From assembly GCA_050739175.1 (NCBI GenBank), contig JBOIAZ010000038.1:1-49606 (forward strand): a DNA stretch of 49,606 nt, given 5' to 3'. The stretch is from Gammaproteobacteria bacterium (GTDB lineage: Bacteria > Pseudomonadota > Gammaproteobacteria > Natronospirales > REEB76). This document shows positions 339-32,743 of the stretch, in pieces. Under the pieces are notes generated by a model, which saw only the letters and a list, made by a program, of their open reading frames with translations, searched no databases and was not told the DNA's origin. Within the stretch, counting starts at the first letter, position 1. Every line of letters begins with the position of its first letter. A program made the position numbers and the translations under genes.

Positions 339-1580
339 TCAAAATGAACCCTGAAACCACTGCTTCATGCGTTGCCATACATCCTTGACATTCACGTTGC
401 CCGCCAGGCGCCGCGCACTGCCGTCGCGTGGCAGGCTTTGCGCGCCGAACAACAACAAACCCACACCGGTTGCGTGGATCGGATTGCGCACCACGTCCGC
501 CAGTCCGGTGACGTACTGCGGCACGCCCAGGCGCACCGGTGAGTGAAATACTTCTTCGGCGAGTTCCACCGCGCCTTCCATCTTGGCGCTGCCGCCGGTG
601 AGCACCACGCCCGCGGGCACCGCGTCCTCGAAGCCGCTGCGCCGCAGCTCCGCCTGCACCAGGCTGAAGAGTTCCTCGTAACGCGGCTCGACCACTTCCG
701 CGAGCGTCTGGCGCGCCAGGCGCCGCGCGGGTCGCTCGCCGACACTCGGCACCTCGATGGTTTCGTCGGCGCTCGCCAGTTGCGGCAGCGCGCAGGCGTA
801 CTTGATCTTGATGTCCTCCGCGTGATGCGTGGGTGTGCGCAGCGCCACAGCGATGTCGTTGGTCACCTGGTCGCCGGCAATCGGGATCACCGCGGTGTGA
901 CGGATGGCCCCTTCGGTGAACACCGCGATGTCAGTGGTGCCGCCGCCGATGTCCACCAGGCACACGCCCAGGTCCTTCTCATCCTCATTGAGCACGGCGT
1001 GACTGGAGGCCAGTTGCTCGAGAATGACGTCGTCCACCTTCAGGCCGCAGCGTTCCACGCAGCGCACGATGTTTTGCGCCGCGCTGAGTGCGCCGGTAAC
1101 GATGTGCACGTGCACTTCGAGACGCACCCCGGACATGCCCACGGGCTCGCGGATGCCGTCCTGGCCGTCAATCACGAAGTCCTGCGGCAGGACATGCAGA
1201 ATTTTCTGGTCCGCCGGCACGCTCACCGCACGCGCCGCGTCGATCACGCGCTCCACGTCGCCCGCGGTCACCTCCTTGTCGCGGATGGCCACCACCCCGT
1301 GCGAGTTCAGGCTGCGCACGTGGCCGCCGGCGATGCCGGTATACACCGAGTGGATCTGGCAACCGGCCATCAATTCGGCCTCGGCCACCGCCCGCTGGAT
1401 GGATTGCACGGTGGACTCGATGTTGACCACCACCCCGCGTTTCAGGCCGCGCGAGGGATGCGAACCGATGCCGACGATATCGATTGCGCCATCGGCGAGA
1501 ATCTCGCCGACGATGGCCACCACCTTGGAGGTGCCCACGTCGAGTCCCACGATGAGCTGCTTGTCGGATTTTCTAACCAT
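339..1580 (-). CDS. ftsA: Cell division protein FtsA (actin-like ATPase)
   Basis: ORF 339..1661. Start chosen at the internal ATG 1580 ([20 protein letters not shown]...), which overlaps the ftsQ stop by 8 nt. DVGT...DIGGGTTD actin-fold phosphate motifs. Position between ftsQ and ftsZ. Confidence 0.93.
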   Translation of the reverse strand: MVRKSDKQLIVGLDVGTSKVVAIVGEILADGAIDIVGIGSHPSRGLKRGVVVNIESTVQSIQRAVAEAELMAGCQIHSVYTGIAGGHVRSLNSHGVVAIRDKEVTAGDVERVIDAARAVSVPADQKILHVLPQDFVIDGQDGIREPVGMSGVRLEVHVHIVTGALSAAQNIVRCVERCGLKVDDVILEQLASSHAVLNEDEKDLGVCLVDIGGGTTDIAVFTEGAIRHTAVIPIAGDQVTNDIAVALRTPTHHAEDIKIKYACALPQLASADETIEVPSVGERPARRLARQTLAEVVEPRYEELFSLVQAELRRSGFEDAVPAGVVLTGGSAKMEGAVELAEEVFHSPVRLGVPQYVTGLADVVRNPIHATGVGLLLFGAQSLPRDGSARRLAGNVNVKDVWQRMKQWFQGSF

Positions 1581-2484
1581 TGGGTTTGACCTCGGTAACC
1601 GGGGCGCATGGTTGTGAGCCGTCCGTGATGCGCTGGCCGGCTGCGCCGCTACGCTCCGCATCCTGCTGCGTTAGTGGTCCGGGGCTGCCATCCATGGCGG
1701 CATCTCCAGCTCGGTTTCCCGGCCTCGTGTTCGCCGTGGCGAGGGTGCCACCGGCACGCCCGCAATACCCCACGGCGAACCCATTCGTGTAACGCATGTC
1801 CACGTAGGCCACGCTTGCCAATTGACTCGCCAGCGTCGGCAAGCTCACGCTCACAAACCGCTCGAGCCGCAACTCGGCATTTTCACGACCGAGGCGCACC
1901 TCCAGGCCATTGCCAAGCTGCAGGCTGGCATCGCCGCGTGCATCCACGGTGAGTTGCCGCAAGACGAGCGCGTGTGGCGCGAGCAACGCGGCGAAGGTGT
2001 AGTACTCGGCAAGCAAATCCGCTTCGCTGCCCTGCGGGCCATTCAGCACCGGTAACTGCACCCAGGCGCTATCATCGGAATGCACGAACACGCGGCCCCC
2101 CGCATCCATCAAGCCGTTGCCATTCCAGCGCACCACCGGCTGTTCTTCGGTGACTTCCACGTACAGCGTGTGCGGCCAACTGCGCCGCACCGCGGCGCTC
2201 GCCACCCACGGCAGCGCCGCAACGGCATTGCGCACCGCATCCACATGCGTGGTGAAGAATCCGCTGCCCAGCGCCGAGCGCACCGCGCCCTGCACCGCCT
2301 GCGGCGGCACATGCGCGAGCCTGCCGGTGATTACCAACTGCGTGAGTGCGGGTCCGGCCAGCAGCGGCGGTGTGTAATGCACGGCGGATGCGATTCCAGC
2401 GGCCAGCAGCAAACCCAGCAGGCTGCCGCCGATTACCTGTGCGCGCGTGACGTGCAGGCCGATGCGGGAAATGCGCGTATTCAC
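1573..2484 (-). CDS. ftsQ: Cell division protein FtsQ (POTRA domain, single N-terminal TM), with a low-complexity C-terminal tail
   Basis: 303-aa ORF with an N-terminal TM ([18 protein letters not shown]) followed by a POTRA-like region ([14 protein letters not shown]...[28 protein letters not shown]). 4-nt overlap with the murC stop. Located upstream of ftsA. Confidence 0.88.
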
Positions 2485-3920
2485 GAGTGCGCCTCCCTGT
2501 CGGGCGCGGCAGGCGCGGGCGCGGCAGCCAGATGCTGCGGCAATTCGGCCGCCATCGCGCCGATGTCGCCGGCACCCAAGGTGAGCAGCAGATCGCCGTC
2601 GTGCAGCACGCCGGCGAGCGCCTGCGGCAAATCCTGGGTGTGCAGCACGAACACCGGATCCACGCGCCCACGGTTGCGGATGGAACGCGCCAGCGCACGC
2701 GCATCCGCGCCGGCGATCGGTGCTTCGCCCGCGGCGTACACCTCAAGCAACACCAGGGCATCCACCTGCGACAGCACTTCGGCGAAGTCCTCGAACAGGT
2801 CGCGCGTGCGGCTGTAGCGGTGCGGCTGGAATGCGACCACCAGCCGCCGTCCCGGCCAGCCTTCACGTGCGGCCTGAATCGTGACCGCGAGTTCGCGCGG
2901 ATGGTGGCCGTAGTCATCCACCAGCAATACCTGGCCGGCAGCGGTGGCGATTTCGCCGTGAATCTGGAAGCGTCGGCCCACGCCCTGAAAACCGGCGAGC
3001 GCTTTGAGCACCGCGTCGTCGTTCACGCCCAGGTCCTGCGCCACCACCATGGCGGCCAGGGCATTCAACACGTTGTGGCGGCCGGCCAGATTGAGCGTCA
3101 CCTCCAGCGGCGTGCGCTGGCCGGGCCGCCATGCCTTGAAATGCGTCTGGCGACCGTCGCGGTGAATGTCGCCGGCGCGGAAATCCGCGTTGTCGGCGGT
3201 GCCGTAGGTAAGCATCGGCCGCGCCACCTGCGGCAGCACCTCGCGCACTTCCGCATCGTCCAGACACAGCACCGCGAGACCGTAAAACGGCAGGTGGTGC
3301 AGAAACTCCACGAAGGTGGCGCGCAGCCGGCTGAAATCGCCCTGATAGGTGCCGAGATGGTCGGCATCGATATTGGTGACCACGGCAATCAGCGGCTGCA
3401 AATGCAGGAATGAGGCGTCACTTTCGTCGGCCTCGGCCACCAGATAACGCCCGCTGCCGAGGTGCGCGTTGCTGCCGACGCTGATCAGCCGGCCGCCAAT
3501 CACGAAGGTGGGATCCAGCCCGCCCTCGGAGAGCACGCTCGCCACCAGGCTGGTGGTGGTGGTCTTGCCGTGGGTGCCGGCCACGGCGATGCCGAAGCGG
3601 AAGCGCATGAGTTCGGCAAGCATCTCCGCGCGCTGCACCACCGGTGTGCGCCGCGCATGCGCTGCCGCCACTTCCACGTTGTCTTCGTGCACCGCACTCG
3701 AAACCACCACGACATCCGCGTCGCCGAGATTCTCGGCGCGGTGGCCCAACAGCACGCGCGCACCCAGACCGGCGAGACGCCGGGTGACGGCGTTGGTGCG
3801 CAGATCCGAGCCGCTCACCTGATAGCCGAGATTCAGCAGCACTTCGGCGATGCCGCCCATGCCGGCGCCGCCGATGCCAACCAGATGGATGCGGTGGATG
3901 CGACGCATGAGTTCGTTCAC
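2481..3920 (-). CDS. murC: UDP-N-acetylmuramate--L-alanine ligase MurC
   Basis: 479 aa. [19 protein letters not shown]-terminus, [10 protein letters not shown]-loop, Mur ligase middle and C-terminal domains. ATGA overlap with the murG stop. Confidence 0.95.
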
Positions 3921-4993
3921 GCTGCGCCTCCCACCTGCAGGCAGGCTTCGGCCACCTTGAGCGCGGCGTGCGGTTTGGCGAGCGCGCGAGCGCGCTGCGC
4001 CATGGCCAGCAACATCTGCCGATCCTTCGCTACGCGTTGCAGCACGACTTGCAGACTCGCGGCGGAGAGCACCGCTTGCGGCAGCAGTTCGGCTGCAGCG
4101 GCGCGCACCAGGAATTGCGCGTTGCGCGTCTGGTGGTCATCCACCGCTGCCGCGAAGGGCACCAGCACCGCGCCCAGCCCGGCCGCGGTGAGTTCCGCGA
4201 TCGTGAGCGCACCGGCGCGGCACACGGCGAGATCCGCCCAGGCATAGGCCCCGGCCATGTCCTCGATGAACGCCGTGACGCGCGCCTGGATCCCGTGCTC
4301 GCGGTACACGGCAGCCACTGCCTCCTCATTCCGCGCACCGGTCTGATGCCAGACTTCCGGACGCGGCAGCGCTTGCCATTGTGCAATCGCCGCCGGCACG
4401 GTTTGATTCAGGACCTGCGCGCCCTGGCTGCCGCCGATCACCAGCACGCGCAACGCACCGCCGCGGCCGGCAAAGCGCGCCTGCGGCGGGGGCAAGGCGG
4501 CAATCGCGCTGCGCACCGGGTTGCCGATGAATTCGGCACGGCGTGCGGCGCGGAAGCTGCCGGGAAAACCTTCGAGCACGCGCCGCGCCAAATGGCTGAG
4601 TACGCGGTTGGTAATGCCCGGCATGGTGTTCTGCTCGTGCAGCACCAGGGGACAGCCGCTCAGGCGCGCCGCCAGACCACCCGGCCCGCTCGCAAATCCG
4701 CCCATGCCGAGCGCCACCGCCGGCCGCAGCCGCCGGAAAATCCGCCGCGCCTGCTGCAGCGCGCGTGCCACGCGCCACGGCGACATCAACAGGGTCCCCC
4801 AACCCTTGCCGCGCAGACCGCCGACGTCAATCCATTCCATGGCAAAACCGGCCGCGGGCACCACGCGCGCTTCCAGTCCCGCGCGCGTGCCGATCCAGCT
4901 GACTTCATGGCCACGGGCACGCAGCACGTCCGCTACCGCGAGAGCAGGGAACACGTGACCGCCAGTTCCGCCGGCCATAATCACTATTTTCAT
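3917..4993 (-). CDS. murG: Lipid II-forming N-acetylglucosaminyl transferase MurG
   Basis: 358 aa. [21 protein letters not shown] glycine-rich N-terminus typical of MurG. Position between ftsW and murC. Confidence 0.95.
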
Positions 4994-5190
4994 GTCTCCG
5001 TCACTTCTTCAACCCTCCCTGGTGCGCCGACCAGCCTGCCCGTCCTTGGGCAGGCGCTCGGCGGGATCGGACAGCCACCGGCTGTCCGATAAATACACCC
5101 GCCTCGCCCACGGGCACGCAGCACGTCCGCTACCGCGAGAGCAGGGAAAACGTGACCACCTGTGCCTCCAGCCATGATTACAACCTTCAT
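4990..5190 (-). pseudogene. Relay ORF B: 66 codons whose first 28 codons are a second copy of the murG N-terminus. It then reads through REP-like element E1.
   Basis: 5107-5236 duplicates 4910-5035 (murG codons 1-28, the GGAGAC SD and about 45 nt upstream). Translation is [28 protein letters not shown] followed by unrelated sequence. Its TGA (4992-4990) overlaps the real murG ATG (4993-4991) as ATGA. Confidence 0.75.
5035..5103. repeat. REP-like structured element E1 (two hairpins plus an outer stem)
   Basis: Hairpin 1 is CCTGCCC-gtcctt-GGGCAGG (5035-5054). Outer stem is GGCGGG/CCCGCC (5060-5065 / 5098-5103). It encloses an 11-bp inner hairpin ATCGGACAGCC-acc-GGCTGTCCGAT. A homologous copy lies at 32636-32705. 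Confidence 0.8.
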
Positions 5191-5390
5191 GTCTCCAACT
5201 CTGCCCATAGAACCTTCCCTGGTGCGCGGACCAGCTCGGCATCCCTGCCGCGCGCTCGCCGGGAAATTCGTCCACTGGACGAATTTCTTGATCCGGCTCG
5301 CCCTCCAGCCATGATTACAACCTTCATGTCTCCAACTCTGCCCACAAGACCTTGCGTGGTGCGCGCATCGGCCGGTCTGCTGCGCGGCAT
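5187..5390 (-). pseudogene. Relay ORF C: 67 codons starting 1 nt after the ftsW stop. It contains a third copy of the murG start (MKVVIMAGG at 5327) and reads through REP-like element E2.
   Basis: 5301-5372 repeats the SD+ATG+9 codons and upstream leader of copy B. The ORF's TGA (5189-5187) overlaps the ATG of ORF B (5190-5188). Confidence 0.7.
5251..5297. repeat. REP-like element E2 (same leader and outer-stem architecture as E1/E3, different inner hairpin)
   Basis: CGCGCTCGCCGGG leader resembling GGCGCTCGGCGGG of E1. Outer stem GCCGG/CCGGC (5258-5262 / 5293-5297). 10-bp inner hairpin GAAATTCGTC-cactg-GACGAATTTC (5263-5287). Confidence 0.6.
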
Positions 5391-5391
5391 T

Positions 5392-6555
5392 TCATGCGGT
5401 CACGCCGCGTTCCAGCCAATTGCGACTGGAGCGCGTTTCCAGGTTCACCCGTAGAATCAAACCGACGGCGGCGCAGATCACGATCAGGCTGCTGCCGCCA
5501 TAACTCATGAGCGGCAGCGTCAGGCCCTTGGTGGGCAGCGCGCCCATGTTCACCCCCATGTTGATGAACGCCTGCAGTCCGATCCACAGGCCCAGACCGA
5601 AGGCGAGCTGCGCACCAAACAGCTGACCGGCGCGCGCCGCCCGGCGTGCGATCACCACCGCACGCCAGGTGAGGATGAAATACAGCGCAATCACCGCCAC
5701 ACAGCCCAACAAACCGAGTTCCTCGGCCAGCACCGCGAACAGGAAATCAGTGTGCGCTTCCGGCAGATAGAACAGCTTCTGTACGCTCTCGCCCAGGCCC
5801 ACGCCGAAAAACCCGCCGCGCCCGATGGCAATCAGCGAATTGGTGAGCTGAAAGCCGCTGTCGAACGGATGGCTCCAGGGATGCAGAAAGCCGGTGAGAC
5901 GTTCCAGCCGGTACGGCGAAGCCACGGCCAGCACCACGAAACCCAGCACGCCGAGCGCGGCCAGGCCGGTGAAATCGCGCAGGCGCGCGCCGCCGAAGAA
6001 CAGCATGGCCATGGCCGTGGCGATCAACACCATGGCGGCGCCGAAATCCGGCTCCATCAGCAGCAGCAGCGCCGCCAGGCCCACCACCAGCATGGGCTTG
6101 AGCGAGCCGCTGAAGCGCTGCGCGAGTTCCGCCTGCCGGCGCACCACGTAGCCGGCTATATATATGAGTATCAGCAGACGCGCCGGCTCCGACACCTGCA
6201 GGCGCAAAGGACCCAGGTCCACCCAGCGGATACTGCCGTTGACATAGCGACCGATGCCCGGGATCAGCACCGCTGCGAGCATCGCCAGCGCCAGCATCAA
6301 CAGCGGGAAGTTCCCGCGCTGCCACCAGCTTAGCGGCACGTGGTAAATCACGCCTGCCACGCTCAGGCCCACTACGGCATAGACAAATTGGCGTTCAAAG
6401 AAATAGAAGGGATTGCCCGTGGTCTTGTCCGCCAGCGTGATCGAAGCCGAGGCCACCATCACCAGCCCCAGGCCGAGAATCAAAGCCGCGCTTACCCACA
6501 GCACCCGATCGGGTGCGAGCGTGTGGCGGCCGGCGATGGGGCGTGCCTCAGTCAT
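5392..6555 (-). CDS. ftsW: Peptidoglycan glycosyltransferase / lipid II flippase-family protein FtsW (SEDS)
   Basis: ORF 5392..6612. Start chosen at ATG 6555 (MTEARPIAG...), giving an 8-nt overlap with the murD stop. Polytopic membrane protein with SEDS-like GLGESVQKLFYLPEAHTDFLFAV and GALPTKGLTLPLMSYGGSS motifs. Confidence 0.9.
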   Translation of the reverse strand: MTEARPIAGRHTLAPDRVLWVSAALILGLGLVMVASASITLADKTTGNPFYFFERQFVYAVVGLSVAGVIYHVPLSWWQRGNFPLLMLALAMLAAVLIPGIGRYVNGSIRWVDLGPLRLQVSEPARLLILIYIAGYVVRRQAELAQRFSGSLKPMLVVGLAALLLLMEPDFGAAMVLIATAMAMLFFGGARLRDFTGLAALGVLGFVVLAVASPYRLERLTGFLHPWSHPFDSGFQLTNSLIAIGRGGFFGVGLGESVQKLFYLPEAHTDFLFAVLAEELGLLGCVAVIALYFILTWRAVVIARRAARAGQLFGAQLAFGLGLWIGLQAFINMGVNMGALPTKGLTLPLMSYGGSSLIVICAAVGLILRVNLETRSSRNWLERGVTA

Positions 6556-32512: not shown

Positions 32513-32589
32513 CGGGGTGTAGCTCAGCCTGGTAGAGCACTTGGTTCGGGACCAAGGGGCCGCAGGTTCAAATCCTGTCACCCCGACCA
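32513..32589 (+). tRNA. tRNA-Pro (anticodon CGG), CCA encoded
   Basis: Manual cloverleaf: acceptor CGGGGTG/CACCCCG, D arm GCTC-AGCCTGGTA-GAGC, anticodon arm CTTGG-TTCGGGA-CCAAG, T arm with a TTCAAAT loop, then ACCA. Confidence 0.93.
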
Positions 32590-32635
32590 ACCGTTACATA
32601 TCCCGCTCACAGAATCATCCCTGATTGGCTAACCG

Positions 32636-32705
32636 GCCACGCCGTCCTTGGCGTGGCGCTCGGCCGGATCGAACAGCCACCGGCTGTTCGATTGAACATC
32701 CGGCC
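32636..32705. repeat. REP-like structured element E3 (homologue of E1)
   Basis: GCCACGCC-gtcctt-GGCGTGGC, then CGCTCGGCCGGATCGAACAGCC-acc-GGCTGTTCGAT...CCGGCC. It is collinear with 5035-5103, and stem differences are compensated. Confidence 0.8.
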
Positions 32706-32709
32706 AAGC

Positions 32710-32743
32710 CCTGTCACCCCGACCCACCGTTGTGTATCCCGCT
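32710..32743 (+). repeat. Direct repeat of the tRNA-Pro 3' end plus 18 nt downstream (copy of 32574-32607)
   Basis: 30/34 identical to 32574-32607. The two copies bracket the 102-nt segment (32608-32709) that contains element E3. Confidence 0.85.

Follow-up and report, generated by a model that had tools for sequence, protein, structure and literature searches.

Genomic islands that target tRNA genes, the SXT/R391 elements that enter the 5' end of prfC, and the arrays formed by integrative and conjugative or cis-mobilizable elements (ICE/CIME) are kilobases to 100 kb in size, encode a recombinase and use a single att site. Rickettsia palindromic elements (RPE), which are AT-rich, insert in frame into genes; to our knowledge, neither gene-start duplication nor a link to stop/start relays has been reported for them. 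Relays of this kind are familiar from termination-reinitiation coupling, in which neighboring genes overlap at ATGA or TGATG junctions and upstream open reading frames (ORFs) melt structure as they are translated. Among the short dispersed repeats, repetitive extragenic palindromes and their derivatives (REP, BIME and REPIN) consist of a single imperfect palindrome of 20-40 nt or an inverted doublet of it, and the defining tag is a conserved GTAG or CGTC at one end (PMC3733652); they occur in many dispersed copies per genome, together with a cognate RAYT transposase gene. A further class comprises inserts with direct target copies on both sides, 30 to several hundred bp in length (Nobusato et al. 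2000, Gene 259:99; Furuta et al. 2010, PMC2853133), namely kb-sized restriction-modification gene units that were each seen once (PMC2853133). Here we analyze the spacer between ftsW and murG in the division and cell wall (dcw) operon of an uncultured gammaproteobacterium, on a 49.6-kb contig (JBOIAZ010000038.1; the window) of a metagenome-assembled genome (MAG). The spacer is a real, polymorphic mobile-repeat array, and the account that we consider fairly probable is that its two units derive from a dispersed, structured repeat of ~100 nt, here named E, with truncated decoy copies of the murG start relaying ribosomes to murG itself.

Anatomy and alleles of the ftsW-murG spacer

We compared the window with the ftsW-murG spacers of relatives, and with metagenome contigs, viral contigs and 72,556 plasmids; L-numbers denote loci on other contigs compared with the window. 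On the minus strand, where all features lie unless marked otherwise, the ftsW ORF ends in TGA (5392..5394), up to which relatives align, and the 398 nt that separate it from murG hold the two-unit array. One nucleotide past this stop, an ATG (5388..5390) opens an ORF in frame with the first duplicated start, decoy start C. There follows the decayed 3' end of an older E (GCGCACCACGCAAGGTCTTGTGGGC; 5340..5372), which has 8 mismatches in 33 positions when compared with the 3' end of the next E copy and is also present in the unit-free relatives L002 and L244. The target copy X of the first unit, which is decoy start C (5302..5339), contains the Shine-Dalgarno (SD) sequence GGAGAC, an ATG at 5327-5325 and 8 2/3 codons with a GG end, and is identical at 38 of 38 positions to 5165-5202. 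It abuts the first complete element, W1 (5203..5301, 99 nt; covariance-model matches of 73.5 and 76.3 bits), which is composed of an outer stem, an 11-bp inner hairpin, a CGAGCG box, a second hairpin and the 3' end CAGGGAAGGTTCTATGGGC, with a predicted folding energy of -44.1 kcal/mol (z = -3.0). Decoy start B comes next (5108..5202), with its SD, an ATG at 5190-5188 and, by sequence comparison, 27 2/3 murG codons; in strains L202 and L203 this same sequence serves as the working start of murG. The second element, W2 (5006..5107, 102 nt; covariance-model matches of 116 and 104 bits; -60.3 kcal/mol, z = -4.7), is a strain polymorphism, being missing from those two strains, which are 99.3% identical to the window. 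The array closes with copy A (4911..5005), the real murG SD and start, which has 14 mismatches to copy B in its first 54 nt and none in the last 41, and leads into the 358-aa murG coding sequence (3917..4993; PF03033 and PF04101; 100% cluster match). A complete ribosome site and start closes every unit, so that the last one runs on into the intact gene and earlier ones remain as truncated decoys.

A sequence-only reading of this DNA had proposed that the murG start region is duplicated, and the duplications are indeed real and far above chance: 4911-4999 and 5108-5196 are 88% identical over 89 nt, and 5165-5235 and 5302-5372 are 89% identical over 71 nt, the last 43 nt being identical throughout. 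Segments 5054-5109 and 5252-5303 moreover fit one shared pattern of end and center motifs, with 0 matches expected by chance. The ORF, stop and start coordinates of the spacer were all confirmed on the minus strand, and the 4-nt overlaps described at other dcw junctions are in accord with the ORF coordinates. Parts of the earlier description need to be redrawn. Since X always meets the 5' foot of E and at murG begins 12-15 nt upstream of the ATG, the supposed duplicated leader of ~45 nt is mostly the 3' end of the hairpin element itself, the remnant at 5340..5372 making up most of the copy-C leader. Copy A, taken for an in-situ duplicate of copy B, differs from it at 14 of 54 positions across the leader and codons 1-13 before identity becomes complete. 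As for the REP-like hairpins, both do fold stably, and what they form is a two-hairpin unit of ~100 nt rather than a simple REP.

The number of units varies among relatives. Loci L212-215, whose MurG is 88% identical, have a 25-nt spacer without E, and L002 and L244 hold the E remnant only; one unit is present in L202 and L203, in L027/L204-211, in L216-219, in L220 and in L221, and two are present in the window and in L001, a contig of another MAG. L003, where the contig is broken, carries at least two identical units and encodes the same MurG protein (P0004) as the unit-free L244. Unit number therefore changes within species, as L202/L203 differ from the window and L003 from L244. The copy A leader (GAAGAAGTGACGGAGAC) resembles that of the L221 lineage (80% MurG identity), and with codons 1-13 it is of a foreign allele type, while codons 14-28 are identical to copy B; given this leader and the drop from 14/54 to 0/41 mismatches, the W2 element arrived with a foreign murG 5' end, with a recombination breakpoint near codon 13. 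The proximal unit of the window (W2 with copy A) is recent all the same. We thus picture units, each consisting of E and a copy X with the murG SD, ATG and first codons, as being quickly gained and lost, which would yield alleles with zero, one, two or at least two of them, and as able to travel between lineages by homologous recombination, as W2 and copy A with its foreign leader and codons 1-13 may have done.

The E repeat family

A covariance model was first built from four E copies, and a second one, applied with filters off, yields exactly four copies in the window, all on the minus strand (~1 per 12 kb). E copies were recognized by covariance model at 12 other loci besides the window. 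Metagenome contigs that carry E are L102, L128, L131 (two copies) and L147, a further copy lies at the ftsW 3' end of L221, and the family is shared by related uncultured Gammaproteobacteria. These matches overturned our initial candidate, a locus-specific element, which had come from a first pattern that matched the two murG copies only. Members are 96-102 nt long and combine two non-homologous hairpins with a weak third. In the consensus, GGGCGAG is followed by an outer stem of 5-6 bp, a bulge of ~7 nt and an 11-bp inner stem with a GGT or AGT loop, and the 3' part consists of CGAGCG, a second hairpin of 7-9 bp with an AWGGA-type loop, and GCTGG...CACCAGGGAWGGTTCTRTGRGC; the boxes GGGCGAG, CGAGCG and CAGGGAWGGTT are conserved and single-stranded.

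Across 21 copies, 90.6% of cells are paired and both partners have changed in 22 of 31 pairs, which none of 500 shuffles matches and no slid register comes close to, with the caveat that the alignment was fitted to the model. Counting G-U against A-C as a means of placing the structure in sense RNA gave no signal, the counts being 17 G-T pairs and 30 A-C mismatches; with G-T not in excess over A-C, nothing assigns the structure to sense RNA over DNA. A known RNA family or ribozyme was also considered as the identity of E and set aside, Rfam 15 yielding only sub-threshold chance matches and no family that reaches its gathering threshold (RF02989, 24.5 bits against 63.6). One of these, RF02604 (the Brucella sRNA CI153), lies on the plus strand at 5251-5295, antisense to W1 (22.9 bits against 137, E = 0.016), and is probably a chance hit of a GC-rich palindrome. 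BLAST of E against the 72,556 plasmids gave no match, none of 17 pattern matches in the viral contigs is a real E, and a protein search with the E-encoded decoy peptide returned no candidates. In the DNA-pattern scan of metagenomes, 76 of 80 loci among the matches listed arose by chance, the real ones being L102, L128, L131 and L147.

E resembles REP, BIME and REPIN sequences in being short, GC-rich, hairpin-forming and dispersed, in lying between operon genes with which it is co-transcribed, and in its paired stem changes. Unlike them, it joins two different hairpins and conserved boxes in a unit of about 100 nt, is found inside coding starts and tails, and is accompanied by long target copies; its alignment contains no GTAG or CGTC tag, the ends being GGGCGAG... 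and ...GGTTCTRTGRGC. Classical MITEs (miniature inverted-repeat transposable elements) have terminal inverted repeats and a duplication of 2-10 bp, whereas the copies flanking E measure 34 to ~95 nt and its left (GGGCGAGGCCGG) and right (GGTTCTATGGGC) ends are not inverted copies of each other. The palindromes derived from IS200/IS605 make no target duplication, in contrast to the long copies found beside E at murG, tRNA-Pro and ubiG. Such palindromes have subterminal hairpins, lack terminal inverted repeats and always insert in one orientation, 3' of a short fixed motif; E has two hairpins, no terminal inverted repeats and a left junction after GG, albeit in a small number of cases and with GG a common dinucleotide. 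E thus behaves as a REP- or MITE-class repeat yet fails the defining features of these classes.

Several further observations concern the family at large. Intergenic relatives in L128 (2133-2234), L131 (5048-5147 and 6458-6556) and L147 (1580-1674) have a GGCTTTC...GAAAGC hairpin as their 3' module instead of the CACCAGGGAWGGTT end, lack any obvious long duplication at their flanks and may represent a sister subfamily. In L147 (~1430-1830, minus strand), part of the second hairpin of another E precedes the element, and the whole lies within a 23-nt perfect inverted repeat (GGGGCAGGTGATCTGCTTCGAAA ... TTTCGAAGCAGATCACCTGCCCC), as if E had landed in the loop of a different palindromic element or of a terminator. 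Orthologous copies, such as the element beside tRNA-Pro in the window and its counterpart in L243 (~2000-2150), or W1, L027 and L003 at murG, differ at the majority of stem positions, and in each case the pairing base has changed as well. The genes that flank these copies at the murG locus are ~89% identical; this suggests replacement or conversion between copies, or templated correction from arm to arm, rather than slow compensatory drift. Finally, GC skew on the plus strand is negative across the window (-0.03 to -0.07), and the sense strands of all four E copies lie on the G-rich minus strand. This would be the presumed lagging-strand template, for which single-strand (HUH-type) elements are expected to be biased, and the coincidence is confounded with gene orientation at n = 4.

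Decoy frames and the next start codon

The decoy starts of the window open frames that cross E and end on the start that follows. Decoy ORF 1 (5187..5327; 46 codons from ATG 5327, where its peptide begins MKVVIMAGG, or 67 from ATG 5390) stops at TGA 5189-5187, which overlaps ATG 5190, and decoy ORF 2 (4990..5190; 66 codons, of which 28 encode murG-like residues before the sequence becomes unrelated) stops at TGA 4992-4990, which overlaps the murG ATG at 4993. Both ATGA junctions had been noted in the sequence-only reading and follow directly from the ORF coordinates. The same reading had called for the spacers of relatives to be compared, and we did so for nine architectures, mapping in each where the decoy begins, where the real start follows and where the first stop falls. 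In all nine, the decoy ORF stays open through E and stops between -10 and +1 of the real ATG, a window chosen after the data were seen, which corresponds to the stop on or within 10 nt of the next start in coupled gene pairs; only 2 of 18 alternative entry frames end within 20 nt of the start, the others stopping inside E, overrunning murG out of frame or fusing to it in frame. The distance from start to start is 137 nt for W1, 197 nt for W2, 143 nt for both L027 and L003, and 140 nt for both L216 and L219, in every case leaving a remainder of two on division by three and placing the decoy stop on the TGA of ATGA, and L204 shares the L027 architecture together with its overlap. The unrelated ubiG locus of L102 follows the same rule (194 nt, remainder two), with TGATGA at the start. 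Only L221 (139 nt) and L220 (151 nt) leave a remainder of one, and both have a TGA 7 nt before the ATG, in the SD region. E-plus-leader lengths of 111, 114, 117, 117 and 117 nt are all multiples of three, as is that of L216 (117 nt) if the start of E is set 4 nt further on than the script placed it, and the two exceptions (113 and 116 nt) are each rescued by a TGA at -10. The ATG is kept in every decoy, even where the peptide has drifted: in L216 and L219 the decoys read MHVVLMSE and MHVVLMGG against MKIVIMAGG and are 3 nt shorter, and SD, ATG, frame and openness are retained.

From these patterns we infer decoy translation and coupling. A decoy that retains its SD and ATG would load ribosomes that melt the -44 to -60 kcal/mol hairpins in their path and terminate on the next start at ATGA. 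Because such ribosomes would both melt the hairpins and stop there, initiation at murG would be neither blocked by structure nor overrun out of frame, and the essential operon would retain only arrays with this property. The decoys share with coupled gene pairs, besides the position of the stop, an SD inside the upstream ORF and strong structure that is translated, and they differ in being truncated copies of the start of the downstream gene itself, made by a mobile repeat. On this comparative evidence, the near-start termination is probably maintained by selection, and a translational relay from the decoys to murG is plausible and comparatively supported. An essential and tightly coupled operon can evidently tolerate repeated invasion when each unit brings or recreates a ribosome site and a start, and the truncated starts left over terminate at the start codon that follows; were the relay real, a mobile element would have built translational coupling.

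Several points weigh against the relay, and most of them also speak for a neutral scar, in which the array is real, the tiling by ORFs is a by-product of built-in ATGA and of the scarcity of stops in GC-rich DNA, and murG uses its own SD, with decoys that do not matter or are translated only weakly. The TGA of ATGA is built into any ATG-AAR start; since it is thus inherent in a Met-Lys start, only frame and openness need explaining, and at ~67% GC we estimate that a frame of 47 codons is open by chance about once in three. All real starts retain a good SD of their own (GGAGAC or GAGAGG, 6-7 nt upstream), so coupling may be unneeded. Nor are the nine architectures independent: many of those with a breakpoint at codon 9 may share one event, ~4-5 events are clearly separate, and support for the relay amounts to roughly p = 0.001-0.03 depending on the definition used, with a stop window set post hoc. 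The comparison of spacers also bore out only part of the relay first proposed, for the near-start termination of decoys recurs but the link from the ftsW stop to ATG 5390, its first step, does not: the codon reads ATA in L027 and L204. We regard the neutral scar as a realistic though less probable alternative, as it leaves unexplained why nine of nine stops fall beside the real start against 2 of 18 in alternative frames, why element lengths differ mostly by multiples of three, why both frame-shifted cases have a TGA exactly 7 nt before the ATG, why ubiG too overlaps its start, and why no decoy has lost its ATG.

That the hairpins instead act at the RNA level, as a processing site, stabilizer or attenuator in the dcw mRNA for the genes from murG to ftsZ, with the decoys as modulators, would fit their very high stability, the sense orientation of all four window copies relative to adjacent protein genes and the covariation of the stems. 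A scan of 4700-5700 found no promoter- or terminator-like site and no U-tract, so that an outward promoter and the attenuator of distal dcw genes suggested by the sequence-only reading are both without support; the lack of an Rfam match and of a G-U excess points the same way. Because close relatives (L212-215, L244) lack the element and unit number varies within species, any regulatory role of E must be dispensable, and we consider this reading quite improbable. An assembly artefact or strain chimera is a natural concern for a MAG, the more so as related contigs end at arrays (L003, L210, L240-242) and copy A resembles the allele of another lineage. It is scarcely credible here: L001 shares the two-unit structure at 99.93% identity to the window, the longest perfect repeats in the array reach a mere 41-43 nt, murG codons fused to a hairpin element cannot come from a chimera, and arrays of the same X-E-X type recur across many samples and assemblers. 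On the match to L001, the short repeats and this recurrence, we reject it. Our preferred account remains the relay across a repeat array.

Target copies and the origin of the units

The unit in which E precedes a copy, X, of the end of the gene beside it is seen at murG, tRNA-Pro and ubiG, so that the spacer, described in the sequence-only reading as a device built from duplicated murG starts, is one instance of what a dispersed repeat does elsewhere. Beside tRNA-Pro, the element T1 (32608..32709; covariance-model matches of 85.8 bits, at 32613-32714, and 94 bits) lies in an X-E-X arrangement between a left (32710..32743) and a right (32574..32607) copy of a 34-nt duplication, identical at 30 positions. 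The right copy overlaps the 3' end of the functional tRNA-Pro(cgg) (32513-32589, plus strand), and the left one is a pseudo-copy of that end and its trailer, with CCC where the functional copy has CCA. The order is thus the stop of a neighboring 2OG-Fe(II) oxygenase gene, the 34-nt copy (trailer and last 16 nt of the tRNA), E, and the same 34 nt running into the intact tRNA. T1 has no E remnant to the left of its first X; the corresponding locus of L243, where the 2OG oxygenase has 89% identity, shows in turn an E right-end remnant, X, a full E with stems quite unlike those of T1, X and the tRNA, and three other assemblies break at this point. We had also considered the C-terminus of the oxygenase (32744-...) as an E remnant and dropped the idea, for the tail is conserved in relatives and is, we presume, the usual C-terminus of its family. 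In metagenome contig L102, E comes after the first 24 ubiG codons, and a complete second start of ubiG comes after E.

E also forms part of protein tails, in which it recalls RPE, likewise structured repeats of ~100 nt tolerated in ORFs. A decayed copy, Q1 (1686..1785; covariance-model matches of 41 and 67.5 bits), is read through in frame and makes up part of the FtsQ C-terminal tail; its position is conserved (L002/L027 6209-6308, L003 3429-3534, L006 6197-6302) in lineages down to 74% MurG identity, and its outer stem is now a perfect GTTCGCCGTG/CACGGCGAAC palindrome. In L221 (942-1044), a full E replaces the last ~11 ftsW codons, provides a new tail of 34 codons and a stop, and is directly followed by X-E-X-murG, which completes an E-X-E-X array.

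The junctions of all these units are alike on one side. X joins E always after GG and always at the E 5' foot (GG|GCGAG), with left-junction sequences GGAGG|, GGTGG|, CGTGG|, GGCGG|, ACAGG| and GTGGG|, although cases are few and GG is common. At murG the breakpoint falls after codon 9 (W1, L027/L204, L003, L216, L219 and L221), codon 12 (L220) or codon 28 (W2). E thus shares with large integrative elements the presence of the target end on both sides, a functional copy that is partly element-borne and tandem accretion at the same site; it differs in its size of 100 nt, in units of 137-197 nt with no gene inside, and in that one family occupies murG, tRNA-Pro, ubiG, the ftsQ tail and the ftsW tail rather than a single att site. 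It comes closer to the inserts with long target duplications, having direct copies of more than 30 bp (38-43 nt at W1, ~95 nt at W2) and empty sites (L002 and L244 for W1, L202 and L203 for W2), and shares with them copies that are variable and sometimes imperfect, the lack of an attached transposase or integrase, and a proposed amplification through the repeats. Those inserts are unique, however, whereas E belongs to a recurrent family of 100-nt non-coding repeats, joins at its 5' foot on the left and always regenerates the gene end.

As to how the units arose, we tentatively prefer tandem duplication combined with homologous transfer. E would come to sit in a short spacer just upstream of a ribosome-binding site, an E-end-specific join of its 5' foot to a GG in the first codons would produce a tandem duplication of E and X, and unequal and homologous recombination would then alter the number of units and spread them. 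This would account for the start of X precisely where an older E remnant ends, seen at two loci (murG and tRNA-Pro), for the E-X-E-X array of L221 and the array of L003, and for unit numbers that vary between close strains. Two observations oppose it and weaken tandem duplication as the sole mechanism: T1 lacks an E remnant on its left, and between C and B the remnant is mismatched at 8 of 33 positions while X is identical throughout (Fisher p = 0.0013), an unevenness that E and X copied as one piece would not give. True transposition, with E as a non-autonomous transposon whose insertion makes target-site duplications of 30-100 nt and of which only insertions with a duplication spanning the gene end survive, would explain the X-E-X geometry, the perfect duplication of 38-43 nt at W1 and the 34-nt tRNA-Pro duplication that has no E on its left. 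We know of no bacterial transposase that gives duplications as long as those at E. Insertion with long and variable target duplication is nonetheless a documented class of rearrangement (PMC2853133), and the longest target duplication mentioned there is that of Mycoplasma IS1630. A fresh target-site duplication gives identical copies, so the mosaic of the recent W2 (14/54 mismatches, then 41/41 identity) weakens simple target-site duplication and requires added recombination, and a random stagger does not predict an X that begins at the end of an older remnant at two loci; we judge transposition to be unlikely. In a third route, an excised E + X unit re-enters by recombination within X, like a miniature integrative element, which accounts for the foreign 5' end of copy A, but we know of no enzyme or circle that would serve it.

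A wider proposal, which we hold to be rather doubtful, is that E is an undescribed non-autonomous mobile element that propagates as an E + X unit through an E-end-specific join at a GG, with decoys kept by selection as a relay. As the hairpin module would carry a copy of the adjacent gene end, such a unit could insert into the opening codons of an essential gene, or into the 3' end of a tRNA gene, and leave the gene active. If E + X is indeed the mobile entity, it would parallel on a miniature scale those integrative elements that mend the gene into which they insert, and would offer a tractable example, and one that recurs, of the insertion with long target duplication that is still unexplained.

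The arrays also have consequences for annotation, since they break MAG contigs and yield spurious small "glycosyltransferase" ORFs and wrong MurG starts. E arrays interrupt MAG and Logan contigs at the starts of L003 and L210 and at the ends of L240-L242. Gene callers are misled as well, with L001 254-439 called as a 61-aa ORF with a weak Glyco_transf_28 match. An in-frame fusion from the decoy start, considered for the "404-aa MurG" of L220, does not hold, as the call begins at a different in-frame codon and the decoy ORF lies in another frame and stops at -10. In all, the murG genes of L203, L204 and L220 were called at 353, 364 or 404 aa, the correct length being 358 aa.

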